NCBI GenBank assembly: GCA_965215195.1
Contig: CBDCDC010000002.1
Location: 480,001 to 544,000, forward strand
DNA: 64,000 nt
DNA from: Candidatus Latescibacterota bacterium
GTDB lineage: Bacteria; Latescibacterota; UBA2968; UBA8231
Direction of reading: 5' to 3'
The notes beneath the pieces were generated by a model, which was not told the DNA's origin, ran no database searches, and saw only the letters and a program-made list of their open reading frames with translations. Below, piece by piece: positions 25,826 through 54,364 of the stretch. How positions within the stretch are numbered: position 1 is the first letter of the stretch; every line of letters begins with the position of its first letter. The translations under genes were made by a program, and so were the position numbers.

Positions 25826-27724
25826 TTGCGAAATTTGTCGATGTGGAGCGCACTGGGCATTGCGGCGATTGTAGCTTGTGGACAGCAGGAGCCGACCGCC
25901 AAAGAGGAGGCATTGCCGCTGGCTCAGGTGGGCGCAGAGTTGATTACAGATCGGGATATACACTACCTGATCGACCATGTGGCCGAGTGGGCCAAGAGCG
26001 AGCAAGAGGGCGGCGCTAAGGTCCGCGAGTACTTGCGGTCGCTGATCGATCGGGCCCTCATTCTCCGCGAAGCGCGCGCCGGCAAATTGGACCGGAGTCC
26101 GGCGTTTGTCAGGGAGGTGGCGACGGCCCTGCGGCGGCGGCTGATACGAGAGATTGAGCAGCGCGCTGTCGAGGACCAGGTCTCCATTGCCGAGGAGGAA
26201 ATGCAGCGCGTCTTTGCCGATCAGCACTGGGAGCGCTGGATCAAAATAGCCCATATCGTCGTACCCACCCAAGCGCGCGCCGAAGAGGCCATGGCGGCCC
26301 TGCGAAGCGGTACTCCCTTTGAGGAAGTAGCCCGCGAATTTTCGACCCATTCGCGCACGGCCTCGCTCGGGGGCGTGAAACCCCAGTACTACAGCCGCTT
26401 CCACGCCGTTCCACTGGTGCGCGATGTACTCTTTAGTCTCAAAGTAGGGGAAATATCAGAGCCCATAGCCGTCCCTCAGGGCTATGAAATTTTCAAGGTC
26501 TTGGACGAATTGCAGGGGTCTTACGAGCAAACGAGGGAATTTCTCTTTAAGACGCTGGCCCAGGAGCGGTTGGACGCCCGCAGAAAGGCGTATGCGGATT
26601 CGCTGGCCGCGCAGTTCCAATTGACTCCAGAGCCGCACGGCCTAGGCCTGCTGATGGAAATTTTGCGCAGCGGTCGGGAGGATCCGGCGACCGGCAAAAA
26701 GACGTTCCAGATTCCGGAAGGGGCCGCCGAGACGCCCCTCTTCAGGTACGAGGGCGGCCAGATCGGGCTCGGGGAAGCCATATTGCAATCCCCGGTCATT
26801 CGCCAGGGCCGAGACGTATCCGACAGTGCGAGAGTGGCCCATTTTCTGCAACGCGACGTAGTAGTGCCCCAGCTCATGTGGATGGAGGCGGATAAATTGG
26901 AGCTCGACCGCGAACTCGAAGAATGGGTCAAGCGCAAGGAAGAAGAAGTACTGATTGTGACCATGCGCCAAATAGCCACTACTACCGACGAGGAGATAAG
27001 CGAACAAGAGGTACTCGATTATTACGAAAAGACCAAGGATCAGTACCGGACCGCCTCGGAGGTGAGCGTGGTGGAGATCCAGCTCGCTAGCGAGGCCGAG
27101 GCCGAGGCCCTGCTCGCCGAGATTCGCGCCCTCTTCGGCCGGGCTTCCCCTTTGATCGACCTGCTCGATAGGATGAAACAAAAGCAGCAGGCCGGGCGGG
27201 ATATGACTGAGGAAGTGCAGGCGCTGCGGGCGCTGGACGAATGGCTCGGCCAGCGGTTGGACGAACCGGGCGGGATGGAGGCGATCTTGGAGGAAATAGC
27301 CACGGCTGCGAGCGCCAAAGAATTGGCCGAAGAGTACATCATGCGCCAACAGGCCGCTAGCCGCAGCCTGCGTCCGGGCGCTAGTGAAACAGAGGGGCAC
27401 TACCATCTCTACTGGTACGAAACGGCGCGCTTTGGGGCTTTGGTCGCAGCGGCCTTTGAGGGTCCGATCGGTTCGCTGATCGGTCCCATGCAGGTGGGGC
27501 CTTCCCACTCGATCGCCAAAATTCTCAGTCGCAGAGAATCAAAAGCGCGTCCCTTTGCAGAACGCGAACGGAAGATAAGAGCCGATATCCGCAAGGAGCG
27601 AGAGCGAGAATTGTTCGGGCGCTGGTTGCGGGATCTGCGCACCTCGTACGCAGATGAGGTGCGCTATTTCGACGAGAACATCGAAAAGTTGGGTCGGGAA
27701 TGGGTCGCGGAAGGACGCGGCTAA
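25826..27724 (+). CDS. Parvulin-type peptidyl-prolyl isomerase lipoprotein (PrsA/SurA-like, two PpiC domains)
   Basis: TTG start after AGGAGG; lipobox IVAC; HIVV....AEE....L.SG..FEEVAREFS...GG; L.VGEISEPI....GY. Confidence 0.8.
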   Translation: MRNLSMWSALGIAAIVACGQQEPTAKEEALPLAQVGAELITDRDIHYLIDHVAEWAKSEQEGGAKVREYLRSLIDRALILREARAGKLDRSPAFVREVATALRRRLIREIEQRAVEDQVSIAEEEMQRVFADQHWERWIKIAHIVVPTQARAEEAMAALRSGTPFEEVAREFSTHSRTASLGGVKPQYYSRFHAVPLVRDVLFSLKVGEISEPIAVPQGYEIFKVLDELQGSYEQTREFLFKTLAQERLDARRKAYADSLAAQFQLTPEPHGLGLLMEILRSGREDPATGKKTFQIPEGAAETPLFRYEGGQIGLGEAILQSPVIRQGRDVSDSARVAHFLQRDVVVPQLMWMEADKLELDRELEEWVKRKEEEVLIVTMRQIATTTDEEISEQEVLDYYEKTKDQYRTASEVSVVEIQLASEAEAEALLAEIRALFGRASPLIDLLDRMKQKQQAGRDMTEEVQALRALDEWLGQRLDEPGGMEAILEEIATAASAKELAEEYIMRQQAASRSLRPGASETEGHYHLYWYETARFGALVAAAFEGPIGSLIGPMQVGPSHSIAKILSRRESKARPFAERERKIRADIRKERERELFGRWLRDLRTSYADEVRYFDENIEKLGREWVAEGRG

Positions 27725-27748
27725 CTCGACGGCCTTTAAGCGTCAAAA

Positions 27749-28849
27749 ATGGATCGAACCGGGATTGGCGGTAAGCTGCTGTTGGCCGTTGCCAGCTTGG
27801 CCATTAGTACGCTCGTCCTAGAAGTCTCTTTTTGGCTCTTCGCTCGGTCCGAGCGAATCTATCCCTTGGTCTATTACGCGACGAGTGATCCGCGCATTGA
27901 CCTGTGGTGCTACGACGAGCACTTTGCGGGTACGCCCGACTGGGATCTGCGACGGGCACACCCGTATGGGAAGTTGACCTATCTGGGCAATGCCAACCAC
28001 GATTCCACCCTCGCCGATCTATCGCCGCTCAAAGTGCCCAATGCCATTGAGATGCGCCGCAACGAAGAACAACTGCGCGAGCGGCCAATGGCTGAGTTCG
28101 ACGCCCAGAGAGCCAAAATCGTCTTGGTGATTGGCGATTCCTTTGGCTTTGGTCAGGGGGTGCGGGTGGCCGAGCGCTTTTCGAATGTCTTGGAGAGCCG
28201 ATTGAAGCGGGAGCGCCCAGCCGAGCGCTATCAGATGTTCAATGCCTGTGTGCCGGGCATGAATATCAAGCGCATCGCCAAGACCATGGAACGCTACGTC
28301 GAGTACTTTGCTCGCGTTGAGCGCGTCGTGTATGCGTTTACCCTAAACGATCCATTTAGGAGCGGGCGTCTGCTGGAGCTGGAAAGGGAACTGGCCGATT
28401 TTATGCACTCGCGGCCTAAGGCCGAGGCCGCCCGATTTATGGCGGGGAGGAACAGCTACGCGCTGCGTTGGTTTGCCGTGCGCTTGCAGAGGAAGCAGGT
28501 CGCCTCGGACACCATTGAGTGGTACCGACAACTCTACAAAAATAACATGGGTTGGACCCTGACCCAGCAGTTGCTGGGCAGGATGCAGAAATCCTGCGCC
28601 GATAAGGGCATTAAATTCTCTGTGGTCGTCTTTCCCGTATTCTACCAACTCGCAGCCTATCCCCTAACAGAGGTACACGAAACGCTCGGGACATTGGCTC
28701 AGCACGAGGGAATACACTGCGTGGATCTCCTCGCTCAATTTGCCGGCAAGGACGCACGGAATTACTGGGTCCACCCGACGGATTTTCATCCCAATAGCCG
28801 AGCGCACCGAGAAGCCGGGGCTTTCCTATACGACGCCATTCCTTGGTAA
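27749..28849 (+). CDS. SGNH/GDSL hydrolase with N-terminal membrane anchor
   Basis: Block I IGDSFGFGQGV, block II N..VPG, block V DFHPN. Confidence 0.85.
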   Translation: MDRTGIGGKLLLAVASLAISTLVLEVSFWLFARSERIYPLVYYATSDPRIDLWCYDEHFAGTPDWDLRRAHPYGKLTYLGNANHDSTLADLSPLKVPNAIEMRRNEEQLRERPMAEFDAQRAKIVLVIGDSFGFGQGVRVAERFSNVLESRLKRERPAERYQMFNACVPGMNIKRIAKTMERYVEYFARVERVVYAFTLNDPFRSGRLLELERELADFMHSRPKAEAARFMAGRNSYALRWFAVRLQRKQVASDTIEWYRQLYKNNMGWTLTQQLLGRMQKSCADKGIKFSVVVFPVFYQLAAYPLTEVHETLGTLAQHEGIHCVDLLAQFAGKDARNYWVHPTDFHPNSRAHREAGAFLYDAIPW

Positions 28850-29042
28850 AACAGGCCGCTCAGGCGGGAGAATCGGCAAAAAAACCTTGCTTTTAATCCA
28901 TATAGTTTTGTATCCTACTCCCATATTTCACCCCGCGTCTTGTGCCAGAAAGGAGGTATTCCCTTTTCGCCGCAGTAAATCAGTTTAGGGCCTGGGCCGA
29001 GCCCAGACGTGTCGCATTGACCTCAACCTCGGAGTTTAAACC

Positions 29043-29957
29043 ATGAAGAAATTTGCTCTTATTGCTGGAGCTATCTTAATCTCCACTACTTGTTGGGCCC
29101 ATCTACCCGAAGGGTTGGTGAGGCCGGCGGTGCAATTCCCCACCGGACAGACTCCCATCATCGACAGTGACCTCTCCGATTGGGACGTGATTACGGATCC
29201 CTATTTGATCACCCACGAGGATTTGACCGAGACGGTGACCGGATTGGGCACTCAGCGCGATGCCGCGGATTTGGCCCTGCGGGCCTTCGTCGGTTGGAGC
29301 CCGGAGACCAACAAAATCTACATCATGGAAGACCGCTGGGATGACGCCGTCTGGGTGGGCGATCACAGTTGGGAAAACGCCAAAGGCAGTGGCTGCTCGG
29401 CCAATGCCCGCGATTTCTTGGAGATCCAGATCGACGGCGATCACAGCGGCGGTCAGTTCAACTCTTGGAGAGACGAATCCCTGACCCAAGAAGAAAAAGA
29501 CATTCTGCACGGCCAGCAGGCCCAGGGCTACGGTCTGCGCCCGAACGGACGCTACGCGTGGCACAAGACCTACGAGCACGCCTTGCCCCCGTTTGGCGAC
29601 GCGGCCTTTACCTGCACCAGCGGCCCAGGGGAGCCCGGCAACTTCTATGCCGAGTACATGTACACTCCGTGGAACGATCTGCGCTGGACCGACGTACCCA
29701 ACAGCGTCCAGCACATCCTCAAAGAAGGCGAGATCTTCGGTTTCAACTTCACGGTCCTAGATTCGGACGATGGGGGCGGCTACGATGGCTACTGGACCTT
29801 GAGCGGCGACACCAATAGCTGTCACCACGCCGATTTCCTCAGCGACTTTTATCTGAGCCCGGTTGATCCCGACATCGACTGGGCCTCGCAGGTCCGGGGG
29901 GGCACGGCCGTAGAAGAAAAGGGATGGGGCCATATAAAGGCCACCTTTGCCGAGTAA
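29043..29957 (+). CDS. Secreted CBM9/DOMON-like protein with TAVEE..WG-x-IK tail
   Basis: Signal peptide; P.ID.DLSDW, GW......IY....W.DD, D.LEI.ID.D and GF.F.V.D.D motifs of CBM9-like folds. Confidence 0.65.
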   Translation: MKKFALIAGAILISTTCWAHLPEGLVRPAVQFPTGQTPIIDSDLSDWDVITDPYLITHEDLTETVTGLGTQRDAADLALRAFVGWSPETNKIYIMEDRWDDAVWVGDHSWENAKGSGCSANARDFLEIQIDGDHSGGQFNSWRDESLTQEEKDILHGQQAQGYGLRPNGRYAWHKTYEHALPPFGDAAFTCTSGPGEPGNFYAEYMYTPWNDLRWTDVPNSVQHILKEGEIFGFNFTVLDSDDGGGYDGYWTLSGDTNSCHHADFLSDFYLSPVDPDIDWASQVRGGTAVEEKGWGHIKATFAE

Positions 29958-29996
29958 TTGCACTGTGCAGTAAAGGTTTGGCTGCACATGATCGCC

Positions 29997-30039
29997 ATGC
30001 CGCCATGCCGAGAGTTCCCTCTGGCATGGCGGCATTTTT
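29997..30039 (+). terminator. Strong stem-loop with U-tract after the CBM9-like gene
   Basis: ATGCCGCCATGCC (29997-30009) / GGCATGGCGGCAT (30023-30035), followed by TTTT. Confidence 0.7.
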
Positions 30040-30065
30040 GTACGCGAAAGGGGCAGGAGGTGCAG

Positions 30066-31811
30066 ATGCGGAGAGATCGTTCAAGCGCGCAGATCTACTG
30101 GCCTCTGCTAGTGCCGCTCTGGTTGGCCTTGGCGGCGACCGCGCAGGCGGCAGATACCCGAGTGATAGGCGGCAGGGCCGGCGGGGAGCGCTGGGAGGAG
30201 CGCGCTGCGGCCGCGCCGATTATTGATTTTACCAGCCGGCCCGGATGGATCTTGCCCAGCTTTATCGATACTACCACCAACATCGCCTTGGGGACTTTGG
30301 CGCGCGGTGGGAGGGTGGTCTCGCCCAATGCCCAAGCCGTCTTGCGGGTCGACAAGGAGACGCTGGCAGCCGGCTTGGAGAGCATGGTAGATGGAGATCA
30401 TCAGACGGCTTTTGAGGTCAAGAACATAACGGCTTCGGGCATTCTCGTGATCTTCGACCTCGGCGCCCGGTTCGGGGTGAATCGCATACGCTTTTTCCCG
30501 CGCACCTCTTTTCCCAATGATTTCATGCGGGGGTATGCGCTCTTCATCAACGACGGTATTTTCGGGGCTGAAATCGTAGCCGAGTCCATCGACGGGCTGC
30601 CGACCAAAAATCTCTTCGCCCAGATAGATCAGCAGACCGGCAATAGCCAGGATACTGTAAACGTGCAGTTTCCCCTGCGCTATGTGCGCTATCTCCTCTT
30701 GCAAGCCACGGACCGATCCAATTGGGAAATTGACGAGATTGAAGTCTTTGGTCGGGGTTTTGTCCCCGAGGCCGACTATTTGTCCCAAGTTTTCGACTTT
30801 GATCGACCCACGCTCTGGGGCCAACTGCACTGGGCCGCCGAGGCCGTGGGGCACCCGGAAAAATCCCGATTTTTCATCCGTACGCGCAGCGGCAGCAGTC
30901 CATCGCCCACAGAGGAGCCGGACGCTTGGAGCTCTTGGTCCGCTCCCTACCTGAGCGGAGATACCCCGATTCTTTCGCCAGCGCCGCGGCAGTACTTCCA
31001 GTTCCGCCTCGATTTTGCAAGCGACGGTCTGGTAGATGGAACCGCAGTGGATTCGCTGGCTTTTGAATTTTCCGCTCCAGTAGCGGAATCCATCGTCGGG
31101 GAAATATGGCCCCAAGATGTCCCGGTGGGGGTGGATACGACCTTTACTTATGTCGTCCAAGTGGTCAATGGTCGAGGTTTCGACCGCTTGGAAATCGACA
31201 GCTCGGTTCCGGTGCGCACGGTTCGGTCGCTGCACCTTGACGACGAAGAAGTGGAGAATTTCGTCGCCGAGCCGCACGCGAGCGGCCTTGCAGTGACCTT
31301 TCCGCGCCAGAGTGGCAGCCGCGACCTGCGGGTGGTTTTCGACGCGGCGATTTTGCGCTACGAGACGGTTTTTAGCGGGCGCCTGCGCGACAGCGAGTCG
31401 GACGACTTGCCCCAGGAGATTGAAGAAGGAAACGCCGCTGGATCGCTGCTCGGCGACGATCTGAGCGTGAGAGTGCCGCTGGATCGGGCCCCGGTCGTCC
31501 ATCGGGTGATCGTGGCACCCAACCCTTTTACGCCCAATGGAGACGGGATCAACGATCAGACGACCATCAGCTACGATCTACTGCATTTGATAAACGACGT
31601 TCCGGTTTCTTTGCAGGTCTATGACCTAGCCGGAAAACAAGTAGCGGAATTGCCGGTGGAGAGCAACCAGAGTGGGCGTCATCTGGTGCATTGGAACGGC
31701 CAGAATGCCCAAGGTCGCTATCTGCCGCCGGGACTGTACGTCTTGCAGGTGAAAGTGGCAACGGACAGCGGCGCGGTGAGCCGCAGCAGTTTTGTCGCAA
31801 TCGTCTATTAG
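30066..31811 (+). CDS. Secreted discoidin-like + FlgD-Ig/type-B-CTD-like protein (paralog 1)
   Basis: GGAGG RBS and signal peptide; FDLG....V.RIR..., EIEVFG.GF, WS.WS.PY, PNPFTPNGDG.ND, WNG......LPPGLY. Confidence 0.8.
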   Translation: MRRDRSSAQIYWPLLVPLWLALAATAQAADTRVIGGRAGGERWEERAAAAPIIDFTSRPGWILPSFIDTTTNIALGTLARGGRVVSPNAQAVLRVDKETLAAGLESMVDGDHQTAFEVKNITASGILVIFDLGARFGVNRIRFFPRTSFPNDFMRGYALFINDGIFGAEIVAESIDGLPTKNLFAQIDQQTGNSQDTVNVQFPLRYVRYLLLQATDRSNWEIDEIEVFGRGFVPEADYLSQVFDFDRPTLWGQLHWAAEAVGHPEKSRFFIRTRSGSSPSPTEEPDAWSSWSAPYLSGDTPILSPAPRQYFQFRLDFASDGLVDGTAVDSLAFEFSAPVAESIVGEIWPQDVPVGVDTTFTYVVQVVNGRGFDRLEIDSSVPVRTVRSLHLDDEEVENFVAEPHASGLAVTFPRQSGSRDLRVVFDAAILRYETVFSGRLRDSESDDLPQEIEEGNAAGSLLGDDLSVRVPLDRAPVVHRVIVAPNPFTPNGDGINDQTTISYDLLHLINDVPVSLQVYDLAGKQVAELPVESNQSGRHLVHWNGQNAQGRYLPPGLYVLQVKVATDSGAVSRSSFVAIVY

Positions 31812-31829
31812 CACCACACGGGGGGCCAT

Positions 31830-34556
31830 ATGACCAGATGGAGTGCGCGTCCGAGCCGGCAGCTTCTCCTCGCAGCAGCAGGTATCGCACTGTTGCTGAG
31901 TCTTGCAGCAGTACCCGACCGAGCCGTAGCCCAAGGACTTGATTATGGCCACAGATTGGGCCTGCAGCGCGGCGGCGAGGTCTCGTACGAACCAGTGGGC
32001 TCGGGCGTACTTTTCGACGCCTTGGACCCGGCCGTGCGGCGCTGGTACGTGCCGCAGGAACTTTTCCTTCTCTATCGCTGGAAGCAATGGGAGTACACCA
32101 ATTATGCCCGGGATCACTACCAGCGCTATCTGAATCCCGATATAGAGGGGGATTATTTTTACGACCTGTATGGGTCTTTCATCTCCAAAGGCTGGCTCAT
32201 CTACGATTGGCGCCAGCAGCAGCCGCAGCAGTTTGGCAGCGCCATTTTCAAAGATCCGCGGTTTGGGTCGTGGTTCAATCGGCTGGTCATCTCCTCGGAC
32301 CGCAGCGGCCAGTACCACATGGCCCTGACCATTGGCGAACAGCTCCGCACCACCTTGACGCCCATGACTTTTTCTAAGCCGGCTTTCGACGGGGTGCAGA
32401 TGGATCTCCAGTCCGACAAGTACGCGGCCACGATATTGATGTCGCGCATTAGCTCGCCGGGCAGAGCGGGCACCATTACGGTGGAAGCGACCAATAGCAC
32501 CAACCTCTTCGGCTTTAGGGGAACGACCCAGATCGGCGATTTTGTCAAGGTGGGCGGCACTTATGTCAACGCCCATCATTCCCAGACCTTGATCGAGAGC
32601 CTCGAGGGCGACCCGGTAAGCGGCTCCCTGACCGTGGGGCAGAACCTCGAACCCATAAGCCAGCTCTTCGTCCGTTTGAGCGATGATTCACCCGCGGATC
32701 GCGAAGGCGGGGCCGCGCTGTTTTCCCACGATATCATCATCGAGGCCGAGACCGAGGTTGTGGTTGTAACAGACGATGGCGAAGAGCGGATCGAAATTCG
32801 CAAAGAGACGGTGCGCGGCAGCGAGATCGGCTTCAGTGCCCTCATCAACGGAGGGTTTCGGCGGCGGGGCTTTCTCGCGGCCGATGGCAGCGAGCAGATC
32901 GTGCTGACCTATGATTTCACCAGCGAGAACCGCTCGTACAACGGCCCGGACCTCTCCACCATTCGCCGGGTCACCCTCGAATTGGCCGTAGCCAACGACT
33001 ACCACATTGAGATGGGGTCCGATCGCCAGACCAATCTGCCCGAGCGCCAGCCGGTCTTTCTGACTCAGGCGCGGGCCGCGGGCAATGTAAAAGACGGCTC
33101 CAACCTGAGATTGGTGCGCTTTGACTACGGTTTGCCCACGGGCAACGACATCTTCGGCGGCACCATCGAAGTAAACGATCTGCTGGGCTTTGACCTCTAC
33201 GCCGAGTTCGATCGCAGCCGGCGCTTCCGCAAGTACCCCAATCGCAAATTCACCGAACACCTCATGGACTCCAACGAGGCCAGTGCTTGGATGATCAATC
33301 TGGCGCGGCGGACCTATCCCTTGTTCTTCTTTGGCGAAGTTTATAGCATGGATTACGACTACGGCACTACCGGCTTGCTCACGGAAGCCAACGGGGACAT
33401 TGACTACACCAACGAACGCCGGTTTTTCTACGAATTCGTCGAGGACAACGACGATCAGGATCGCACGCCCGACTGGCAGCGCGTCAACCAAGCGGGGCCG
33501 GACCGGGAAATTTTTCCGGGCTGGGACGAGAACAACGATTTCATCTCGGATTTCAACCAGAACGACACCGACTTCCGCCCGAATTACATTCCCGATTACG
33601 AAGAACCTTTCCTGCGCTACAGCGTGGATCGCCCCGAGTTCCTCTTTGGGGTAGATATGAACAACAATTTCTGGATCGACCGCTTTGAAAACGACGAAGA
33701 GCCCGACTTCCCCTACGACCGCGACCACCGCGGAGGCAATGTCTATGCCGGCGCTCACATCGTGCCCGGGATGCGGGTGACGGTTGGCCGCAAGCAGGAG
33801 CGCACGCTTTCTACCGACCGGGAGGAAAACAGCAGCTACGGGATGTTCACTTGGGATCGGGATATAGCTGGGTGGGGCCGGCTGCGGGTCTTCGACATGT
33901 TCAAGCAGGTTGAGGACACTATCCCGGACGATATCGTTCAGTGGGTGCAGCCGGCGGGTACTGAGGCGAATCTACAGCGGGTTCCAGACCTATTAGCCGC
34001 TCCCAACACTTGGATAAATTCCGCCTATATCGGTTTTGACTACACCGGGAGCGCCAAGCTGAAACTGGTCCACAAAGTGAAATACGATGTCTGGCATCAG
34101 CGGGAGGAACAGTCGGACTTTCGCGACAAGTACCAATTTTTTGGCCTTATTAACAAAGCCGAGTACCGGCAACAGTGGGGACGCTTTCAGCTCGCGCCCA
34201 AGATCAAAAACGAATTGCGGCTCGAAGCGCCCTTGTTGAGCAATGAGCCGGTGCGAAGAGAGGACACCTTGATCCTGTTCCTCATTGGCCAGACCCCTAT
34301 ACTGACCGGCTCAGAAGTACAAGTGGGAGTCGAGTACACCCTATTCAACCAATTCGAAGAAGACGCGACAGCCTTGGGTCTGCAGGAAGATTTTCAGGAG
34401 TTGGTGCTGGCGGTCCAATACTCCAATACCGGCGCTTATTTGGGATACGCTTTGACCACCCAGTTGGGCATGCGAATCAACCGCATAGACGAAAAGGGGC
34501 AAAATCCCTCGACGGGCATAGCGCAGTTCATTACGGTACTCGCGGGACTCGATTAA
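31830..34556 (+). CDS. 908-aa exported protein, putative outer-membrane beta-barrel with acidic Ca-binding-like loops
   Basis: Signal peptide; D/N-rich loops (EDNDDQDRTPD, DENNDFISD, DMNNNFWID); alternating amphipathic strands toward the C-terminus. Confidence 0.6.
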   Translation: MTRWSARPSRQLLLAAAGIALLLSLAAVPDRAVAQGLDYGHRLGLQRGGEVSYEPVGSGVLFDALDPAVRRWYVPQELFLLYRWKQWEYTNYARDHYQRYLNPDIEGDYFYDLYGSFISKGWLIYDWRQQQPQQFGSAIFKDPRFGSWFNRLVISSDRSGQYHMALTIGEQLRTTLTPMTFSKPAFDGVQMDLQSDKYAATILMSRISSPGRAGTITVEATNSTNLFGFRGTTQIGDFVKVGGTYVNAHHSQTLIESLEGDPVSGSLTVGQNLEPISQLFVRLSDDSPADREGGAALFSHDIIIEAETEVVVVTDDGEERIEIRKETVRGSEIGFSALINGGFRRRGFLAADGSEQIVLTYDFTSENRSYNGPDLSTIRRVTLELAVANDYHIEMGSDRQTNLPERQPVFLTQARAAGNVKDGSNLRLVRFDYGLPTGNDIFGGTIEVNDLLGFDLYAEFDRSRRFRKYPNRKFTEHLMDSNEASAWMINLARRTYPLFFFGEVYSMDYDYGTTGLLTEANGDIDYTNERRFFYEFVEDNDDQDRTPDWQRVNQAGPDREIFPGWDENNDFISDFNQNDTDFRPNYIPDYEEPFLRYSVDRPEFLFGVDMNNNFWIDRFENDEEPDFPYDRDHRGGNVYAGAHIVPGMRVTVGRKQERTLSTDREENSSYGMFTWDRDIAGWGRLRVFDMFKQVEDTIPDDIVQWVQPAGTEANLQRVPDLLAAPNTWINSAYIGFDYTGSAKLKLVHKVKYDVWHQREEQSDFRDKYQFFGLINKAEYRQQWGRFQLAPKIKNELRLEAPLLSNEPVRREDTLILFLIGQTPILTGSEVQVGVEYTLFNQFEEDATALGLQEDFQELVLAVQYSNTGAYLGYALTTQLGMRINRIDEKGQNPSTGIAQFITVLAGLD

Positions 34557-34582
34557 CGCACGCCAGTGCGGGAGGTAGCGGC

Positions 34583-36487: not shown

Positions 36488-36509
36488 GTCGCAAGGGGGT
36501 AGAGCACTT

Positions 36510-39023: not shown

Positions 39024-39149
39024 AAGTCTAGACGCAAATTCCTCCCGGCGTGGCCGCCGCGCCGGCCCCATCGTCCCGCTGATCCCATTCCACCATTGCC
39101 TTCCCAACCGCCGGGAAAGTAGCCGGTAGCTGCTTGGGACAAGGGGCGA

Positions 39150-41150
39150 ATGCGGTTGCAAAAGAAAATCCCCGCAGAGTATCTGCAATACCTAGCGAAA
39201 GAGACCCACTTGGCAGCAGATCAGCAAAGTGCCACCGGCATTCCCATGCGGGGCCTATTGATCGGGGCGGTGCTCGCCTTTCTGATCAATTTCCTCGACG
39301 TGTATTGCACCCTCATGATACGCGGGTCGTACCTGACCCTGAATTTCAGTACGCCGGCGGCCCTTTTCTTTTTCTTCATCTTGGTGCTGGCCAGCGGCCT
39401 AATAGCCCTCATCCGCCGGCCCTTGGCGCTAAACCAGACCGAGCTGATCACTATCTACATCATGATGATCGTGAGCTGCTGCGTCCCCAGCATGGGGTTG
39501 ACGCCGGTCTTGCTGCCCCAACTGGTGGGTCCCATCTACTACGCCACCCCGGAAAACGACTGGGCCGAGATCTACAACCAGTTCATACCCAACTGGCTCA
39601 TTCCGCAAGGGGAAGACGTGGCGCGCTATTTCTACGAAGGGCTGCCCGAGGGGGTCCCCATCCCTTGGGCACCTTGGATTGTGCCCCTGACCTACTGGTA
39701 CGGTTTCTTCCTCTCGCTCTGTCTGGTCATGACGTTCACTATGATCATTCTGCGCAAGCAGTGGGTGGACCGCGAAAAACTGGTCTATCCCTTGGTCCAA
39801 GTGCCCATGGAGATGATCCAGCAGGAGAGCAAGGGAATTATTGGCAAGTCCTTTTTTACCAACAAAGCAATGTGGGTCGCCTTTGCCTTTTCGTTCACTC
39901 TGATCAGCATCAACGGGTTGCATTCCTATTACCCGTACTTCCCGCTAATTGAGCGGGACTTCAGGCTACCCGTTTTCCGCGACACCGTCATGCTCTGGTT
40001 CTTCTTCAGTCCGTCTTGGCTCGGCTTCTTCTACTTTGTCGGTCTCGACATTTCCGCTTCCATCTGGGTTTTCCACACCCTCACCCTGATCCAGAAGGGG
40101 ATCTTCAACGTCGTCGGCATCCAGAGCACCGAGCGGATAGACCACTATGCCCGCGATACGTACACCTCCCATCAGGGCATGGGGGCCATGATCGTCTTTG
40201 TGCTGATCATGTTATGGGGATCGCGCGAACACCTAGGCCATGTATTCCGCAAGGCGCTGGGCCGCGCCCCCGCAGTAGAAGACTGCGGCGAGGTGGTGTC
40301 CTATCGGCAGGCGGTGTTGGGTTGGTTGGGTTCGCTGTTCCTGTTTGGCCTTGGCCTGTGGATGAGCGGCCTCCCGCCGTTGGCCACCCTGATGTTCATC
40401 TTCAGCGCCATGGTGATTTTTCTCAGCCTGAGCCGCGTTGTGACCGAAGGCGGCGTCCCGGCCATGAGGCCGCCGGTGATGAGTTCGACCTTTGTCATTT
40501 CCGGGGGCGGCACCCAAGTCTTGGGGGCTTCCGGGCTGGTGGCACTGGGCTTCTCCTATGGCTGGCACTCGGAAATCCGCTCTTTTGTGATGGCGTCGGT
40601 GGCCAACGGGCTAAAAATGAGCGAAGTCATCAGGGGCTCCAAGCGCCGTCTGTTCTGGGCCGTGCTCATCGCCATTGTGGTCAGCTTGATAGGCTCTACG
40701 TACATGGTTCTGTACCTCGCCTATAAATACGGCGGCATCAACCTCAATCCGCTCTTTTTCGGCTGGAAGGGGGGCATTGGCCCCACGGATATGGCCCCGC
40801 GCATTGCCGCAGAACCCACGGGACCCCGTCTCGACGCTTGGTTGTTCATGGGCATTGGCGGGGCGGTGATGGCGGGATTGATGTGGGTGCGCCACCAAGT
40901 CCTCTGGTGGCCCCTTAGTCCGCTCGGTTATTTGATCAGCGCCAATTGGAAGACCAGTCACATTTACGCCAGCGTATTCCTCGCTTGGTTTCTCAAGTTG
41001 GTCATTCTGAGGTATGGCGGGCCCAAACTGTACCGCAGCTTGCGCCCGTTTTTCCTCGGGCTCATCCTCGGGGAAATTGTGGCGGCCGGCGTCTGGCTGG
41101 TCATTGATTATCTCACCGGACACATGGACAGTTTCCTCACCCAAGTATAG
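39150..41150 (+). CDS. DUF6785/DUF6784-like polytopic membrane protein (putative transporter)
   Basis: Many TM helices; YYATPEN.W, IPW..W..P, LRKQW...EKL.YPL, WWPL.PLGY and LRYGG..LY....PFFLGL.LGE motifs. Confidence 0.75.
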   Translation: MRLQKKIPAEYLQYLAKETHLAADQQSATGIPMRGLLIGAVLAFLINFLDVYCTLMIRGSYLTLNFSTPAALFFFFILVLASGLIALIRRPLALNQTELITIYIMMIVSCCVPSMGLTPVLLPQLVGPIYYATPENDWAEIYNQFIPNWLIPQGEDVARYFYEGLPEGVPIPWAPWIVPLTYWYGFFLSLCLVMTFTMIILRKQWVDREKLVYPLVQVPMEMIQQESKGIIGKSFFTNKAMWVAFAFSFTLISINGLHSYYPYFPLIERDFRLPVFRDTVMLWFFFSPSWLGFFYFVGLDISASIWVFHTLTLIQKGIFNVVGIQSTERIDHYARDTYTSHQGMGAMIVFVLIMLWGSREHLGHVFRKALGRAPAVEDCGEVVSYRQAVLGWLGSLFLFGLGLWMSGLPPLATLMFIFSAMVIFLSLSRVVTEGGVPAMRPPVMSSTFVISGGGTQVLGASGLVALGFSYGWHSEIRSFVMASVANGLKMSEVIRGSKRRLFWAVLIAIVVSLIGSTYMVLYLAYKYGGINLNPLFFGWKGGIGPTDMAPRIAAEPTGPRLDAWLFMGIGGAVMAGLMWVRHQVLWWPLSPLGYLISANWKTSHIYASVFLAWFLKLVILRYGGPKLYRSLRPFFLGLILGEIVAAGVWLVIDYLTGHMDSFLTQV

Positions 41151-41216
41151 TTGCTCAACGTGGCCGAGCTAGCGCCTGCTTCCCCCAATGGGGCGTCTGG
41201 GCCTTCTCCGTTTGGG

Positions 41217-43727
41217 ATGGCGACGGCGCTCAGTTGCCTTTTCCTGTCCGGGGCCGCGAGCCTGTGCTACGAAGTTTGCTGGATCAGAAAGGCCGGCCTG
41301 TTCTTTGGCAGCACGACCTTCGCTTTGGCGACGGTGCTCGCGGTGTTTTTCCTCGGATTGGCCCTCGGCAGTGCCCTAGCCGGTCGCCTGTCGGCGTCGT
41401 TGCAGCACCCGCTGCGGATCTATGGGATCGTCGAGCTGGCCATTGCGGCGTTGGGCCTAGCGAGCAACCCCCTGCTCGATGTGGCCGACGACGGCTACGG
41501 AATGCTCTATCGCTGGGCCGACGGCTCGACGCCTTGGATCGCGCTGGTGCGCTTGGTCTTAGTGGCAGCCGCGATCCTCGTGCCCACGATTCTGATGGGG
41601 ACGACGGTTCCCTTGCTCGCCAAGGCGACCATCCGCCGCCATCGCCGCCTCGGATTTGCCGCCGGCGGTCTCTACGGCATCAACGCGCTGGGAGCGGCCA
41701 CCGGGGCGGCCCTCGCCGGCTTTGGGACCCTGCCGGTTCTGGGGCTCGCCGCGACCATCCACCTCGGGGCGGCCCTCAATGGTTTGTGTGGCGTTGCCGT
41801 GCTGCTGGCCTGCTGGCAAACGAGCTCGGCTCCGCTGGCCGAGCCGCCCGAGACCGACGCGGGCAGGACGCTGCGCATACCCGTGCTGCTGCCGTTGTTC
41901 TTTCTGACCGGGTTCGTGGGCGTGGCCATCGAGATTCTGTGGGCGCGCTACTTGCCCCTGATGATTACCAGTTCGGTGCATGCGTACACCCTGCCGCTCG
42001 TCGTGGTTCTGCTCGGCATCGGCATTGGCAGCCTCGTCATCGCGCCGCTGTGCGACCGCAGCCGGCATTTAGTCGTGGTCTTCGGCATGCTCCAGGCGTT
42101 CACCGGGCTGAGTGTCCTAGTTGCGATGAAGCTGCCCCGGGACCTCTGGACGGCACTCGCGGAGGCCGCTCCAGACTTGATCAGCGCCAACCACTTCGCG
42201 GGCCTGCACGGCGTCGTATTGCTGCCGGGCGCGCTGGCTTCGGGCGCTTCGTTTCCCCTCGTGGTCCGGCTGGTGTCGCGGAACGTGGCCGACGCGAGTT
42301 GGACGATCGGTCGGCTGACGGCCATCAATACCGCCGGTGCTATTGCGAGCGCGGTGCTCATGGCCTGGGGGCTTTCTTGGTTGGGGCTCGACCTCGCGCT
42401 GCGGACGGTCACCGGCTTGGCCATCGTCGGGGCCTGCGTGGTCTTTGCCGCCGGGGCCGGCCGCCAGATGGGGTGGGGCGTTGCTGTATTGCTGATTGCC
42501 TTGAGTGCAATTGGGTGGGGACTCGCCGCGACCTTGCTCAAGACGCGGCTTCCCCACGATTATCTGGCCTCCGAGGGAACCCTGCTCGAAGTGGTGGAGG
42601 GCCAAGGTGCCAGCCTGGCCGTGGTGCAACTCGAAGACAAGGTGCTGCTCGGGATCGACCGCTTGTGGCAGGGTTCAAACAAGAAGAACCAGCAGACCTT
42701 TGCCGGCCATCTGCCCATGTTGCTGCGCGGCGATGGCAACGGGACGGAGGTGCTCGTAGTGGGTATGGGTACTGGCCAAGCCGCCGGGCGATTTCTGTTG
42801 TGGGATGTCCAGCGGCTCGATTGCTTGGATGTGGAAGTGGCTGTTTTCGATCTCGCCCGCCGCTACTTTGGCGCGACTTGGCTAGACGACCCTCGGGTGC
42901 GCGCCCTAGCGGAAGACGGGCGGGATTACATCCGCCACAGCCAAGCCCGCTACGATGTGATCGGCATTGAAGTGGGCCAACTCTTTCGCCCGGGAGTCGT
43001 TTCCTTTTACACCAAAGACTTTTACCAGCGCCTCAGACAGCGGCTAAAGCCCGGCGGCCTAGTGACGCAATTCGTGCCGCTGCGGATGCTTTCCACGCCG
43101 CAGGTGCTCGACATCATCGCCACCTTCATCCGCGTCTTTCCGCAGAGCCAGCTCTGGTTCAATGGGCCGGAGTTTGTCTTGATCGGCCGCCGGGCCGCTG
43201 CTTTTGCGCTCGACATCCCATCCCTCGAAGAGCGGCTGAGGAGGCCCGAAATTCGCCGCGATCTGCAGTACCGGCACCCGCTGGACGCGAATACGGGGTG
43301 GCTCAACGAGTCCGACAGCGTGTTGGGGAGCTTCTTAGCGTCGGCTGAGGATTTGAGCACTCTAAGTCGCGGGGGGCGGATTCTCACCGATGACGTGCCT
43401 AGGTTTGACTACGAACTCAACCCGCGTCAAGATATCGAGGTGCGCACCGTGGGTGCTTTACTTGCGATCGAAAAACCCTTGCACAAGGCGGCCACTGCCG
43501 CGCTCGACAAGAGGCGCATGACCCGCATCGAACAAAGGCGCAAACAAAATCTGTACGCCTTGGCCAACTTGATCGTCGAGCGCGGCAACAAAGCCTTACA
43601 AGCCGGGCAACTGGAGCGGGCCGAGCGGACTGCGCGGGAAGTGCTGGCCGAGGTGCCGGGGCATACGAGGGCACTTTGGCTGCTCAAAAGGATTGAGGTA
43701 GAGGGAATCGACGAGAATGAGTATTGA
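41217..43727 (+). CDS. Fused MFS-like membrane / spermidine synthase-like protein with C-terminal TPR-like helices
   Basis: FLSG..SL.YEV.W.R......FGST, P.TILMG.T.P, VLVVG.GTG and EDGRDYI......YDVI motifs. Start uncertain (41151 or 41217). Confidence 0.85.
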   Translation: MATALSCLFLSGAASLCYEVCWIRKAGLFFGSTTFALATVLAVFFLGLALGSALAGRLSASLQHPLRIYGIVELAIAALGLASNPLLDVADDGYGMLYRWADGSTPWIALVRLVLVAAAILVPTILMGTTVPLLAKATIRRHRRLGFAAGGLYGINALGAATGAALAGFGTLPVLGLAATIHLGAALNGLCGVAVLLACWQTSSAPLAEPPETDAGRTLRIPVLLPLFFLTGFVGVAIEILWARYLPLMITSSVHAYTLPLVVVLLGIGIGSLVIAPLCDRSRHLVVVFGMLQAFTGLSVLVAMKLPRDLWTALAEAAPDLISANHFAGLHGVVLLPGALASGASFPLVVRLVSRNVADASWTIGRLTAINTAGAIASAVLMAWGLSWLGLDLALRTVTGLAIVGACVVFAAGAGRQMGWGVAVLLIALSAIGWGLAATLLKTRLPHDYLASEGTLLEVVEGQGASLAVVQLEDKVLLGIDRLWQGSNKKNQQTFAGHLPMLLRGDGNGTEVLVVGMGTGQAAGRFLLWDVQRLDCLDVEVAVFDLARRYFGATWLDDPRVRALAEDGRDYIRHSQARYDVIGIEVGQLFRPGVVSFYTKDFYQRLRQRLKPGGLVTQFVPLRMLSTPQVLDIIATFIRVFPQSQLWFNGPEFVLIGRRAAAFALDIPSLEERLRRPEIRRDLQYRHPLDANTGWLNESDSVLGSFLASAEDLSTLSRGGRILTDDVPRFDYELNPRQDIEVRTVGALLAIEKPLHKAATAALDKRRMTRIEQRRKQNLYALANLIVERGNKALQAGQLERAERTAREVLAEVPGHTRALWLLKRIEVEGIDENEY

Positions 43728-43739
43728 GGACAGGCCCTT

Positions 43740-45617
43740 TCAGTGCGCCGCGTACACGACGCCGGTTTTCTCGACCTTTCCCCGGTCGGTATTGGCCGAG
43801 ACCCGATACAGGTAAATCCCCGGCCGCACCAAACCGCCGGCCTCGTCCCGACCATCCCACGCCCGCTCGTACTCGCCGATCCCATCCGCGCCCGCATACA
43901 CCTGCCGCACCCGGCGAGCTGACAAGTCCCACACTTCCACCGCTACCTGCGCACGGCCCGTAATCTCCAAGATGTGGTAGTAGATACCTATCCCGTCATT
44001 GCGGCCATCGCCATTGGGCGTGAAAATGGTTGGCTCAACTCGCACCTGCAACAGCTTCTGCTCCTGCGCGGCGGTGACCACCGACACCCGGTTGCCCTCG
44101 TATTTCGCCGTAGCGTCCCCGGCATTGACCCCCTGCGGCACCTCCAAAGGCTGGTCGCTGTCCGACACCTGCGCCGCAAAGATAGCTCCGTAGCGCAGCA
44201 CCTGTGCTGCGAAATCGACCTCGACCAGTGCCCCCGAATCCTGCTCCTCAAGGCGCGGAAAACTGACCGCTAGCCGATGCGGCTCCGCGGCTTCCACCGC
44301 AAAGGCCACGGGCGCATCGCCGATGCGCACGGCCTCCACCGCGCTGATGATGGAGGAAGTCTCAATTTCCAGCCGGTCAAAGCCGACATCTCCTCGGTGA
44401 ATCGTCGGCCGCAACGCATAGGTGAAGGACGATTGCTGCCCCACTTTTGCTTCGACCGGCCAGATTTCGCCCACCAAGTTCGTCGCCACCGGCTCAGAGA
44501 CGCGCAACTCCACGAAACCCACCCGGCCGCCGTTGTTTTCTTGCGGCAGAAAATCGACCTTGAACTGGAAGTAGCGTCTGGGGCTTGCCGACACCACCGG
44601 CGTACCGCTGCTGTCGGCAAAATCATAGGGCGCCGACCAGAAGGTCCAGTGGTTGAGGTCGTGGGTGATGCCGGCCCTTTCGTTGCGTTTGAGGCCGTTG
44701 TAGGCGGCGCGACTCACCTCGGTTTTGCTGCCGCGGCCGGTGAAGCGCCAGAATGCGTCCGCATCGTCGTCTAAGCCGCTGCGGGTCTGGATGAGGACTT
44801 GGGCGCCGGGCTCCTGAACGCCGGACCAGCGCAGGTCTCCCCAGGCCATGGGCCGCTCGAAATCGATGACATCGGAAATATAGGTGGCCTGTTTGACGAA
44901 CCCCTTGGCGTAAACTTCTATTTCGTTCACTTCCCAGGCCGTGTTGTGCTCGGCCAAGGCCACCTGGACAAACTCTACTGGCTCGTGCGATGGAATGGGA
45001 ATGTCGAGGATTTGCTCCCGGTTGTCTCTCACCTCGACGATCCAAGGCGATTTCGGAGGAACGATGCCGTAGTTGACTATGGGTAGCGGGCCGAGGTGGA
45101 CGCGGAGGATTCCCACGGTTCGGCCCGGGTCGGTAAACCCGGATATGACCCGAATCCGGTCGATGTTGTAGAGGCCGCCTAGGAAGATATTGGCCGTGCC
45201 CGCCCGACTGAAATCATCGGTGCAGGCCCCGGATCTGATACTGTGTTCGGCGCACAGGTACTTTTCCGCCAGCCAGAAAGTACCCGGGTCCCCATCCCAC
45301 ACCTCTACATTCACATCGGCTCTTAAATACTCTCCCCCTTTTTCTTCGATTCCGGGTGCTATGTTGAAGTCTGGATTGCGTTTGAGGGGCTGGATACCAG
45401 TACTATCCACGGCCAAGTCAATGGTTTCTCCATGAGGTTCGGCATCGAAATCCAGCCAACTCAACTGTCTGAAGTCCACCCCGGTACGGCCTTCTTCAGG
45501 AGGTTTGGGCCGATTTTCACCCCCGAACCGGTAAATGGTCAGACCCGAGACCGGGCCGGCCCAAAGGCCGATCGCCGAAAAAACCCAGACTAGAGAAAGG
45601 AATCGCGCTGCTTTCAT
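43740..45617 (-). CDS. Secreted discoidin-like + FlgD-Ig/type-B-CTD-like protein (paralog 4)
   Basis: EIEVYAKGF, IQTRSG, WTFWSAPY, IFTPNGDGRND and WDGRD..G..V.PGIY motifs; closest in layout to 34583-36487. Confidence 0.8.
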   Translation of the reverse strand: MKAARFLSLVWVFSAIGLWAGPVSGLTIYRFGGENRPKPPEEGRTGVDFRQLSWLDFDAEPHGETIDLAVDSTGIQPLKRNPDFNIAPGIEEKGGEYLRADVNVEVWDGDPGTFWLAEKYLCAEHSIRSGACTDDFSRAGTANIFLGGLYNIDRIRVISGFTDPGRTVGILRVHLGPLPIVNYGIVPPKSPWIVEVRDNREQILDIPIPSHEPVEFVQVALAEHNTAWEVNEIEVYAKGFVKQATYISDVIDFERPMAWGDLRWSGVQEPGAQVLIQTRSGLDDDADAFWRFTGRGSKTEVSRAAYNGLKRNERAGITHDLNHWTFWSAPYDFADSSGTPVVSASPRRYFQFKVDFLPQENNGGRVGFVELRVSEPVATNLVGEIWPVEAKVGQQSSFTYALRPTIHRGDVGFDRLEIETSSIISAVEAVRIGDAPVAFAVEAAEPHRLAVSFPRLEEQDSGALVEVDFAAQVLRYGAIFAAQVSDSDQPLEVPQGVNAGDATAKYEGNRVSVVTAAQEQKLLQVRVEPTIFTPNGDGRNDGIGIYYHILEITGRAQVAVEVWDLSARRVRQVYAGADGIGEYERAWDGRDEAGGLVRPGIYLYRVSANTDRGKVEKTGVVYAAH

Positions 45618-45788: not shown

Positions 45789-46127
45789 TCAGAAGAACGA
45801 CCCTTGCTTGAGAAACTCCACCGGTGCTTCTTCGCCCCAGCCGCGCGTGTAGTAGTCCTGCATGGTCAAGGCCAGCAGGATGCACAGCCAGAAGAAGCCG
45901 GCGACCGCAAATAGCCCGACCAGCTTGGGGCTGTATTTGACGTGCATGAAGAACAAGATGACCAGCGATGCCTTTACTAAAGCGATGATTAAGGCGACGG
46001 GGGTATTCAAAAAGCCCATGTTGACGAAGGCGGCCGCGACGGTGAGGATGGTGCCGATCATCAGGGCGAAGAAGATCAGAAAGTAGATCTTGAGCGGGAC
46101 GACGTGATGTTCGTGGTGTTCAGACAT
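45789..46127 (-). CDS. ctaF: Cytochrome c oxidase subunit IV
   Basis: Y..IF..L...T.LTV and IA.VKA.LV.LFFMH.KY motifs; TAATG coupling to ctaE. Confidence 0.9.
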   Translation of the reverse strand: MSEHHEHHVVPLKIYFLIFFALMIGTILTVAAAFVNMGFLNTPVALIIALVKASLVILFFMHVKYSPKLVGLFAVAGFFWLCILLALTMQDYYTRGWGEEAPVEFLKQGSFF

Positions 46128-46795
46128 TAGTGGCGTCCGATCAGATAGAGCAGGGGGAAGAGGAAAATCCACACGATATCCACGAAATGCCAGTAGAGGC
46201 CGCTGATTTCAATCGGCGTAAAGTACTGAGCCGAAATCTCGTTGCGCCGGACCTTGACGATCATCCACAGCATGATGCCAACGCCGATGACCATGTGCAG
46301 GGCGTGCATCCCAGTCATCACGAAGTAAAACGAGAAGAAAATTTTGGCGTTGCCGAGCGAGACTTCCGGAGAGGCCGGGTCGTTCCACTGAAACATGCTG
46401 CCCGGGATGAGGTTATCGTGCCACTTGGAGCTGTACTCGATGTACTTGACGCCTAAAAAGGCGCAGCCGAGAATGATCGTAGCGACGAGCCATCCCGTAA
46501 TTGCGTTGCGACCAGCATTGGTCTGGGCGGCGCGGACGGCCAGCGCCATGGTCAGGCTGCTGGCGATCAGCACGATGGTGTTGAAGGTGCCCCAGCCAAT
46601 GCTGAGAAGGTAAGAGCCAGCGGTGAAGGCTTCGATATACTTGTAGCGATACACAGTATAGGCACCGAATAGCCCCCCGAAGAACAGGATTTCTTGGATG
46701 ATGAACGCCCACATGCCGAGACTGGCGGCTTCGTATTGCTGCTCAGCCGTCTCGAACTGGTGTAGGTGGTGGGCGCTATGTGCGTGCTCAGACAA
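46127..46795 (-). CDS. ctaE: Cytochrome c oxidase subunit III
   Basis: E..FF.GLF, MTG.HALH and [11 protein letters not shown] motifs. Confidence 0.95.
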
Positions 46796-48455: not shown

Positions 48456-48480
48456 GGCTTGAATGACCTCGTTGAGATGT

Positions 48481-49416: not shown

Positions 49417-49434
49417 GCGGTTCAAGGCTCCGAA

Positions 49435-52980: not shown

Positions 52981-52989
52981 ACGTTCGGC

Positions 52990-54363: not shown

Positions 54364-54364
54364 G

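Follow-up and report, generated by a model that had tools for sequence, protein, structure and literature searches.

Which envelope function is served by a run of genes in which CTD-tailed secreted proteins surround a 908-aa exported protein, directly downstream of a sugar ABC operon? The original prediction was of a non-Sus apparatus for surface capture and uptake or adhesion, with the tailed proteins docked on the 908-aa protein. We analysed the window (the whole stretch of 64,000 nucleotides) and confirmed both the ABC operon upstream of the run and ten open reading frames, nine on the + strand and one convergent on the - strand:

25826..27724, +, parvulin/SurA-like PPIase, predicted lipoprotein (Rotamase_2, E 1e-17); core family
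27749..28849, +, SGNH/GDSL hydrolase with N-terminal membrane anchor (GDSL_2, 33.1 bits, cut-off 32.9); accessory
29043..29957, +, secreted CBM9-like protein, 304 aa, TAVE..WG.IK tail at its end; core family
29997..30035, +, strong RNA hairpin with a short U run after it, in the gap from the CBM9-like gene to paralog 1
30066..31811, +, paralog 1, 581 aa from ATG 30066; signal peptide, FlgD/CHU_C tail
31830..34556, +, 908-aa predicted outer membrane barrel of about 24 strands (AF2 model, fold searches)
34583..36487, +, paralog 2, 634 aa, architecture as paralog 1
36510..39023, +, paralog 3, 837 aa, long form, discoidin domain over cut-off (F5_F8_type_C, 31.3 bits)
39150..41150, +, DUF6785/DUF6784 polytopic inner membrane protein, candidate transporter (Pfam/NCBIfam)
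41151..43727, +, MFS/spermidine-synthase-like fusion; accessory, confined to the closest orthologous loci
43740..45617, -, paralog 4, 625 aa, convergent; position here not conserved

Parts of the locus and their recurrence

The first gene had been called a PPIase lipoprotein, and both its Rotamase domains (Pfam/NCBIfam) and a lipobox-like IVAC with Cys18, read from the sequence, bear this out. The hairpin downstream of the CBM9-like gene (-31.4 kcal/mol, z -5.45, 0 of 200 shuffles) is likely a terminator or an mRNA-stabilising stem. It was not among the calls of a consensus terminator scan, and the promoter/terminator scan gave nothing exceeding shuffled levels. Because the longer frame of paralog 1 crosses this hairpin, the most likely start is the ATG at 30066, which is preceded by AGGAGG. 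Four studies yielded RNA contigs of related strains (mostly 90-95% alike) that extend over the region from the CBM9-like gene to paralog 3, with one 7.5-kb contig covering 29976-37364. The upstream control stretch is RNA-covered too (26-27 of 30 bins), and the RNA-contig signal may therefore include DNA carry-over.

All four paralogs have C-terminal matches to FlgD_ig and CHU_C (Pfam/NCBIfam), with CHU_C over the cut-off in three. When scored against the type-B model TIGR04131, the four tails gave 22.2 bits, 23.5 bits, no match and 16.6 bits, all below the cut-off of 35. Across the paralog family, the same model matches 87 of 99 tails at E<=0.01 (best E 1.7e-9), and a type-B-like FTPNGDG motif is found. 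On sequence grounds, the paralog tail is related to the type-B tail, though the TIGR04131 cut-off is missed in this locus. The paralog architecture consists of a signal peptide, a variable discoidin-like region, a shared core with an Ig-like region, and the FlgD/CHU_C tail. The discoidin (F5/8) match is over the cut-off in paralog 3 only, sub-cut-off in paralogs 1 and 2 and lacking in paralog 4; a PDB search with paralog 3 matched FlgD alone. The paralogs vary most in this discoidin region (median 19% vs 35% in the tail), as would be expected if different ligands were bound on one scaffold. Taken as a single sequence, the CBM9-like protein gave no Pfam/NCBIfam match and no PDB relative. The CBM9-like assignment holds at the profile level, with CBM9_1 found in 6 of 24 family members (best E 1.3e-7) and the family profile matching T. 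maritima CBM9-2 (1i82, E 0.0012). The secreted cassette proteins are likely sugar-binding.

Recurrent co-occurrence of the parts, as anticipated, was found both within the genome and across the phylum. This genome of an uncultured Latescibacterota bacterium contains 38 diverged barrel cassettes with 53 barrels, 104 paralogs, 31 CBM9-like and 27 PPIase genes, all four core families being present together in 23 cassettes; in total these occupy about 510 kb, or 8% of the genome. Of the paralog-family genes, 106 of 133 lie no more than 10 kb from a barrel gene, in zones that make up 15% of the genome, compared with 5 of 94 other CTD-tailed proteins; the corresponding counts are 34 of 43 for the CBM9-like copies and 30 of 41 for the PPIase copies. 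Clustering of the core exceeds chance by far. Between-cassette similarity of the barrel follows that of the paralogs (Spearman 0.79), the CBM9-like protein (0.81) and the PPIase (0.40), with 0 of 500 permutations in each case; the cassette parts co-duplicate. Of the 168 phylum genomes, 107 have the barrel, as do all 75 other genomes belonging to the family.

It is very improbable that unrelated envelope genes have been brought together here by chance or by insertion at a hot spot. Such an origin would fit the SGNH gene, the MFS fusion and paralog 4, which differ among close relatives: SGNH, with two copies in the genome, is found in 7 of 11 direct orthologous loci, and paralog 4 lies downstream of the MFS gene in 2 of 9. 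The core, in contrast, is enriched, co-duplicated and conserved in order. Chance clustering is refuted for the core and holds for the accessories only. These three genes, previously listed with the run, and the ABC operon are local accessories; a place for the ABC operon in the unit was not supported, with ABC permeases near cassettes only mildly enriched (7 of 26). Against an expectation of 9%, CRTAC1-like proteins (27 of 66) and TPR proteins (35 of 94) are enriched near cassettes. No enrichment was seen for the catabolic families sulfatase (3 of 36), Gfo/Idh/MocA (6 of 79), enolase superfamily (2 of 61) and PhyH (0 of 10), likewise with 9% expected, and the enriched neighbours included no recognised glycoside hydrolase family. 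The cassette type is apparently undescribed: no open-access literature on it was found, and in a term search the main text of PMC12993501, on sponge Latescibacterota, gave 0 mentions of T9SS, secretion system, TonB, FlgD or outer membrane.

The predicted outer membrane barrel

The 908-aa protein matched no Pfam/NCBIfam family, and PDB sequence and profile searches yielded no relative. Single-sequence AlphaFold was uninformative (pLDDT 30). The AF2 model (pLDDT 90.2, pTM 0.86) contains 23 long strands between residues 118 and 872, with short turns alternating with long loops, and carries an inserted beta-sandwich as well as a conserved Asp-rich loop. This model and the fold searches agree with the earlier proposal of an outer membrane barrel, predicted to have about 24 strands; fold and sidedness are those of the model. 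The best fold matches are MtrB (Foldseek E 1e-8), SlpA (Z 13.9, 410 aligned, rmsd 7.2), LptD and FimD, with the FimD/PapC ushers at Z about 11, 7-8% identity and rmsd about 7. The nearest structures, Deinococcus SlpA and Shewanella MtrB, show 8-11% identity and TM-scores of 0.22-0.25 with the barrel, and SlpA_C gave weak matches in 10 of 48 barrel homologs. Unlike SlpA and MtrB, the cassette is without an SLH domain or a cytochrome partner, and the beta-sandwich and Asp-rich loop further set the barrel apart; the inserted domain matched no fold in a viral fold library. For the barrel, the nearest named cluster in the Atlas is DUF6029 (0.89), which is a lead only. A PorP/SprF-like identity, as previously suggested, was not borne out: the mature protein has 874 aa, about 24 strands and no match to PF11751, which is likewise unmatched in the 48 homologs.

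Secretion route, motor operon and candidate transporters

The idea of a T9SS-like route was upheld. SprA is encoded in a 1,969-aa frame (TIGR04189 over cut-off) and occurs in 167 of 168 phylum genomes, and the PorV shuttle has two matches over the cut-off in the genome. GldM was not found in this 95% complete genome, control genomes likewise remaining under the cut-off; the genome search for PorP/SprF was blank, with no positive signal from its control, and the barrel is not PorP/SprF-like. In the T9SS type-B CTD/PorP-SprF pairs (SprB/SprF, PG1035/PorP; PMC9143113, PMC12618676), CTD-tailed secreted proteins adjoin an outer membrane barrel as they do here, and many cognate sets per genome and the presence of SprA are also shared. 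In contrast to these pairs, the cassette has two to four cargo genes per barrel, a barrel of the length and strand number given above, tails under the TIGR04131 cut-off, and an ExbB/ExbD operon with no GldM found.

A link of the barrel family to an ExbB/ExbD motor operon had been missed in the earlier reading. Divergent barrel copies share their operon with ExbB, ExbD and a 1,100-aa TPR protein, and three of the four ExbD loci in the genome have a big TPR gene and cassette genes. A barrel-TPR-ExbB-ExbD operon occurs in four of five genomes of other families, where a separate small PorV-like barrel lies downstream of the CTD gene; the big TPR was not found in any of the four barrel-less genomes examined. 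The transducer heads are DUF4159, not TonB_C, and a TonB-type S-x-x-x-H anchor was seen in one of four DUF4159 proteins inspected. The Ton/ExbB-ExbD force transducers likewise pair an ExbB and ExbD motor with a TPR gene and with a partner that is anchored in the membrane and carries a non-TonB head; this head is a vWA domain in the transducers with a co-occurring TPR gene of PMC12204202. They differ in that the head here is DUF4159, with 0 mentions in that paper's main text, and the target a new barrel family. As the cassette in the window carries neither a motor gene nor the big TPR or the 260-aa lipoprotein, we infer that it is energised in trans; motor genes are found at 3 loci vs 38 cassettes.

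The DUF6785 protein had been assigned the import of the product. Of its 47 copies in the genome, 21 lie within 6 kb of a cassette (9% expected), and 29 of 36 loci in this subfamily have it downstream of the cassette. It is not a required part: the protein is present in 56 of 56 genomes without the barrel and missing from all 13 family f10 genomes that bear the barrel. In two barrel-less genomes, 6 of 16 gene windows have DUF6785 directly after or a few genes from a TonB-receptor cassette, composed of a TonB receptor, a large exported protein and a PorV/PorP-like barrel. DUF6785 thus accompanies two kinds of outer membrane uptake unit. An OPT-like identity is an Atlas lead at 0.78-0.80 (below 0.9); PF03169 was matched in 0 of 21 members, no PDB match was obtained by sequence or profile, and no publication was found in the open-access literature.

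The system is non-Sus, as predicted: neither Plug nor TonB_dep_Rec matches the barrel, the genome's matches to these families lie elsewhere, and SusD is absent from the locus, its single genome match being at C2:2.05 Mb. Like SusC/SusD loci, the genome has dozens of paralogous cassettes of barrel plus binding proteins, with variable binding domains and inner membrane transporters nearby. Unlike them, it combines a barrel of another family with binding proteins that bear CTD tails instead of lipid anchors and, in contrast to PULs, sampled catabolic enzymes are not enriched nearby. TonB-receptor counts are 21 and 25 in barrel-rich genomes vs 36, 22 and 21 in barrel-less ones, and PorV-like matches per genome range from 0 to 3 in family f1 and from 1 to 13 in f2-f4 (best 15 candidates or fewer scored in each). 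Genome-wide replacement of TonB receptors by barrel cassettes was considered and set aside as half supported, plug totals being alike and the contrast amounting to one lineage split.

Capture and uptake weighed against other functions

We consider it quite possible, if somewhat short of probable, that the cassette is a motor-energised, non-Sus, substrate-specific unit for surface capture and uptake, powered in trans by the ExbB/ExbD operon. The tailed paralogs would be exported by Sec and delivered to the surface by SprA with a PorV-like shuttle, while the parvulin lipoprotein may aid folding of the barrel or paralogs encoded in its own cassette. Atop the barrel, the CBM9-like protein would join with two to four paralogs in a variable binding cap, by analogy with SusD and the surface glycan-binding proteins on SusC. 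The motor, via the 1,100-aa TPR protein, would open the barrel by acting on its conserved periplasmic N-terminus, and DUF6785 or other neighbouring transporters may then move the product across the inner membrane. Of the capture and uptake reading as originally proposed, the recurrence, predicted barrel, T9SS-like route and non-Sus character stand, and the PorP/SprF-like barrel and an obligate DUF6785 do not. More tentatively, Latescibacterota may possess an importer class of their own, a counterpart to SusC/SusD with a new 24-strand barrel family, an SprA-secreted cap, an ExbB/ExbD-giant-TPR motor replacing TonB, dozens of specificities per genome, and DUF6785 as a new inner membrane transporter family.

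The same parts could be read as a display platform, in which the barrel anchors SprA-secreted paralogs as adhesins or a surface coat and transports nothing through its pore. The type-B-like FTPNGDG motif and CHU_C matches, the near-universal SprA, the S-layer porin SlpA as nearest fold, and CRTAC1/TPR neighbours in place of enriched catabolic families are all consistent with this, as is the anchoring of type-B proteins on PorP-like barrels shown in PMC9143113. We regard it as somewhat unlikely, since neither a motor operon nor so large a pore would be needed, a separate small PorV-like barrel is already present in the motor operon, DUF6785 is linked to the cassettes, and the system occurs in records of lake, marine and sediment type besides sponge type (by record titles). 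Unlikely, too, is a motor-driven export or assembly pore, usher-like or Agl-Glt-like, which would translocate the paralogs of its own cassette, or polymerise them, into a surface fibre or a moving adhesion complex. It would account for the ushers among the nearest folds and for one foldase per cassette; the ExbB, two ExbD and giant TPR arrangement presumably resembles the AglRQS/GltD layout, and with GldM not found any T9SS-like export would need another motor. However, the same tail type on 94 other proteins away from barrels points to a general SprA route, and the usher likeness is at the level of generic barrels.

The central protein of the cassette, the barrel, is found in every other genome of the family, yet it lacks both a Pfam family and a solved relative. 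If the cassette is an importer, it would constitute a third energised outer membrane uptake route beside TonB receptors and SusCD, and would explain the uptake of dissolved organic matter by these uncultured bacteria. Should it instead serve for display or export, SprA-based secretion would operate without the Gld motor. On either reading, the parts are defined and suited to expression and structure solution.

Gene content and conserved core of the run

All ten ORFs of the original prediction, which described a ~20-kb envelope system, were recovered at their predicted positions. Family scans recognised one parvulin PPIase and one SGNH hydrolase in the run, FlgD_ig/CHU_C tails on four proteins, a DUF6785+DUF6784 protein and an MFS/spermidine-synthase fusion, and gave no match for the 304-aa and 908-aa proteins. 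The CBM9-like assignment of the 304-aa protein was borne out by profile matches in 6 of 24 family members and by a match to 1i82 (E 0.0012). For paralog 1 the likeliest start is 30066, downstream of a hairpin (29997-30035, z -5.45). The spacing of the genes, with a 194-base gap upstream of the CBM9-like gene, suggests that transcription of the ABC operon may extend over the PPIase and SGNH genes, with the remainder read from a new promoter. Around 39055-43740, the ends of paralogs 3 and 4 are joined in RNA contigs from two runs on related strains, which, the overlap being short, is a weak hint that those strains lack DUF6785 and the MFS fusion.

We compared 36 loci of the window's barrel subfamily (at least 65% identity). 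The order CBM9-like, paralog, barrel (the 908-aa protein), two paralogs, DUF6785 is present in 29, the remaining 7 being truncated by contig ends. The SGNH gene occurs at 7 of 11 direct orthologous loci, and the MFS fusion at 9/9 of those with sufficient flanking sequence; the 65-69% identity group lacks the fusion altogether. Downstream of the fusion, these nine orthologs carry paralog 4 (two), a second copy of paralog 3 (five) or another DUF6785 (two). Since the SGNH gene, the fusion and the genes that follow it vary, the ~20-kb unit reduces to a ~13-kb core with local additions.

Two further window features were noted:
46127-57346 (-), Alternative complex III and aa3-type cytochrome c oxidase genes in one operon, ordinary
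12885-15431 (-), single 848-aa frame, Eco57I-type methylase with BsuBI/PstI endonuclease domain, in a low-GC stretch

Repetition of the cassette within the genome and across the phylum

The label Ca. Latescibacterota is carried by orthologs that share 93-95% identity. Iterative searches of the ORF set called here for the window's genome (G000, in which the window is C2:480001-544000) yielded 53 barrel, 41 PPIase, 43 CBM9-like and 47 DUF6785 copies; SGNH (2) and MFS-fusion (8) genes are scarce. The middle region common to the paralogs is present in 133 ORFs, 106 of which have a barrel gene no more than 10 kb away (such zones make up 15% of the genome), as against 5 of 94 proteins bearing the tail alone. 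Grouping resulted in 38 barrel cassettes spanning 510 kb, 23 with all four core families. Between-cassette similarity of the barrel is congruent with that of the paralogs (0.79, 36 cassettes), the CBM9-like protein (0.81, 28 cassettes) and the PPIase (0.40, 27 cassettes), with 0/500 permutations as high in each case. This shows co-duplication of the cassette parts, as opposed to binding.

The barrel is present in 107 of 168 phylum genomes: in 75/75 other genomes of G000's own family (f1), in 13/13 of family f10 and, with this query, in 0/56 of families f2-f4. Matches to the paralog middle region number 3-41 per genome across 54 genomes of f1, and 0-1 (weak) across 51 of f2-f4. Related genomes are not independent, and these family differences are thus lineage contrasts.

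DUF6785 occurs in 154/168 genomes, including 56/56 barrel-less ones, and is missing from barrel-bearing f10 (0/13). It is therefore a frequent but separate partner of the cassette; it is enriched at cassette flanks (18/44, 8.6% expected). Two barrel-less genomes supplied 16 windows, each picked for a strong DUF6785 match; DUF6785 lies directly beside a cassette of TonB receptor, large exported protein and PorV/PorP-like barrel in three, and a few genes away in three more. Three loci (G081) show a repeated small OMP, TonB receptor (~1,030 aa), 780-aa exported protein and PorV-like barrel adjoining DUF6785. This cassette type belongs to barrel-less families, with one similar example in G000 (C2:4214755-4222277).

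The predicted 908-aa barrel

The AlphaFold2 model of the 908-aa protein (150-row alignment) has a pLDDT of 90.2 and pTM of 0.86. The secondary-structure string of the model gives 23 predicted membrane-length strands over mature residues 118-872, probably 24 with one near 87-97, and long loops alternate with turns of 2-5 residues. The C-terminus of such barrels is periplasmic; on this basis the model puts an inserted beta-sandwich (219-400) and an Asp-rich loop (474-598) outside the cell and residues 1-85 in the periplasm. Conservation across the best-scoring 39 of the 51 full-length paralogs is highest in the Asp-rich loop (62%) and the N-terminus (55%); the inserted domain, at 40%, and the C-terminal strands, at 36%, vary.

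Top Foldseek folds were MtrB, SlpA, LptD, OmpG and FimD (TM 0.16-0.25); VIA-align placed SlpA first (Z 13.9, 410 aligned, rmsd 7.2, 11%), and 10 of 48 homologs matched SlpA_C under the cut-off. The protein belongs to a new large-barrel family (777 representatives at E<=0.001) and not to PorP/SprF. A TonB-receptor assignment was likewise rejected.

Secretion, motor genes and proposed mode of action

A search of G000 for T9SS core genes found SprA (present in 167/168 phylum genomes) and two PorV-like genes; PorP/SprF and GldM were not found, in searches with weak controls. The C-terminal tail TAVE..[ST]WG.[IL]K, a candidate second sorting signal, is carried by 54 G000 ORFs including 29043-29957, of which 36 are CBM9-like and the other 18 mostly unrelated exported proteins.

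An unbiased scan of cassette flanks (8.6% expected) revealed enrichment of CRTAC1-like/TPR proteins (50/103) and of an unnamed 260-aa lipoprotein family (16/20; 17/21 within 6 kb of a cassette), which has no Pfam match and is absent from the window's cassette. The scan led to divergent barrel copies adjoining ExbB, ExbD, a 1,080-aa membrane-anchored TPR protein and DUF4159 proteins.

Example of the lipoprotein family, and motor operons at or near divergent barrel cassettes (ExbB, ExbD, 1,080-aa TPR protein, 260-aa lipoprotein, DUF4159 or small barrel), in G000
C2:778100-778909, 260-aa lipoprotein, unnamed family
C1:164604-179375, motor operon
C2:1886094-1903383, motor operon
C2:1636574-1645062, motor operon

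Three of four ExbD loci in G000 are of this TPR/cassette type, with the nearest barrel ~20 kb away in one case; the fourth accompanies canonical TonB. An operon of paralog, small PorV-like barrel, giant barrel(s), big TPR, ExbB and ExbD recurs in three other genomes (G011, G016, G031). G030 has a version lacking the small barrel, and four windows of G009 showed no such operon. Barrel-rich G141 yields 11 matches to the big TPR, and four barrel-less genomes yield none. The window's cassette lacks ExbB, ExbD, big TPR and DUF4159 motor genes. Away from barrels in G000, tandem arrays of 730-aa CTD-tailed proteins with DUF4159 proteins (C2:2.14-2.17 Mb, 2.36-2.39 Mb, 2.77-2.79 Mb) form a second repeated system.

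The simplest reading joining these facts, to which we give a little under an even chance, is a SusCD-like logic built from other parts. A conserved scaffold would bear variable binding domains, the barrel would be a large, gated outer-membrane pore, one shared motor would energise the barrels, and uptake would be completed by a transporter of the inner membrane, often encoded alongside. The ligand may be a glycan, as CBM9 and discoidin homology suggests. Against a SusCD-like system, sampled catabolic enzymes are not enriched near cassettes and TonB-receptor counts are unchanged. The type-B-like tails and the resemblance of the barrel to SlpA are what would be expected of an anchor or surface coat, which we consider rather unlikely. 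The foldase in the cassette and the motor genes are also consistent with a dedicated export or assembly pore, perhaps akin to the Agl-Glt machinery, a role we regard as more doubtful still.

Two papers (PMC9143113, PMC12618676) define type-B CTD cargo in Bacteroidota, together with PorP/SprF shuttles adjacent to it. In PMC12204202, non-TonB transducers are described beside TolQR-like motors, accompanied by a TPR gene; its main text mentions neither DUF4159 nor Latescibacteria. Literature searches at title and listing level found no paper on this cassette, nor did a term search of PMC12993501. By their defining tests, the window's system is neither a PorP/SprF pair nor SusCD. It is a conserved, heavily multiplied and real envelope system founded on an undescribed barrel family, and we infer that it most likely works like SusCD.
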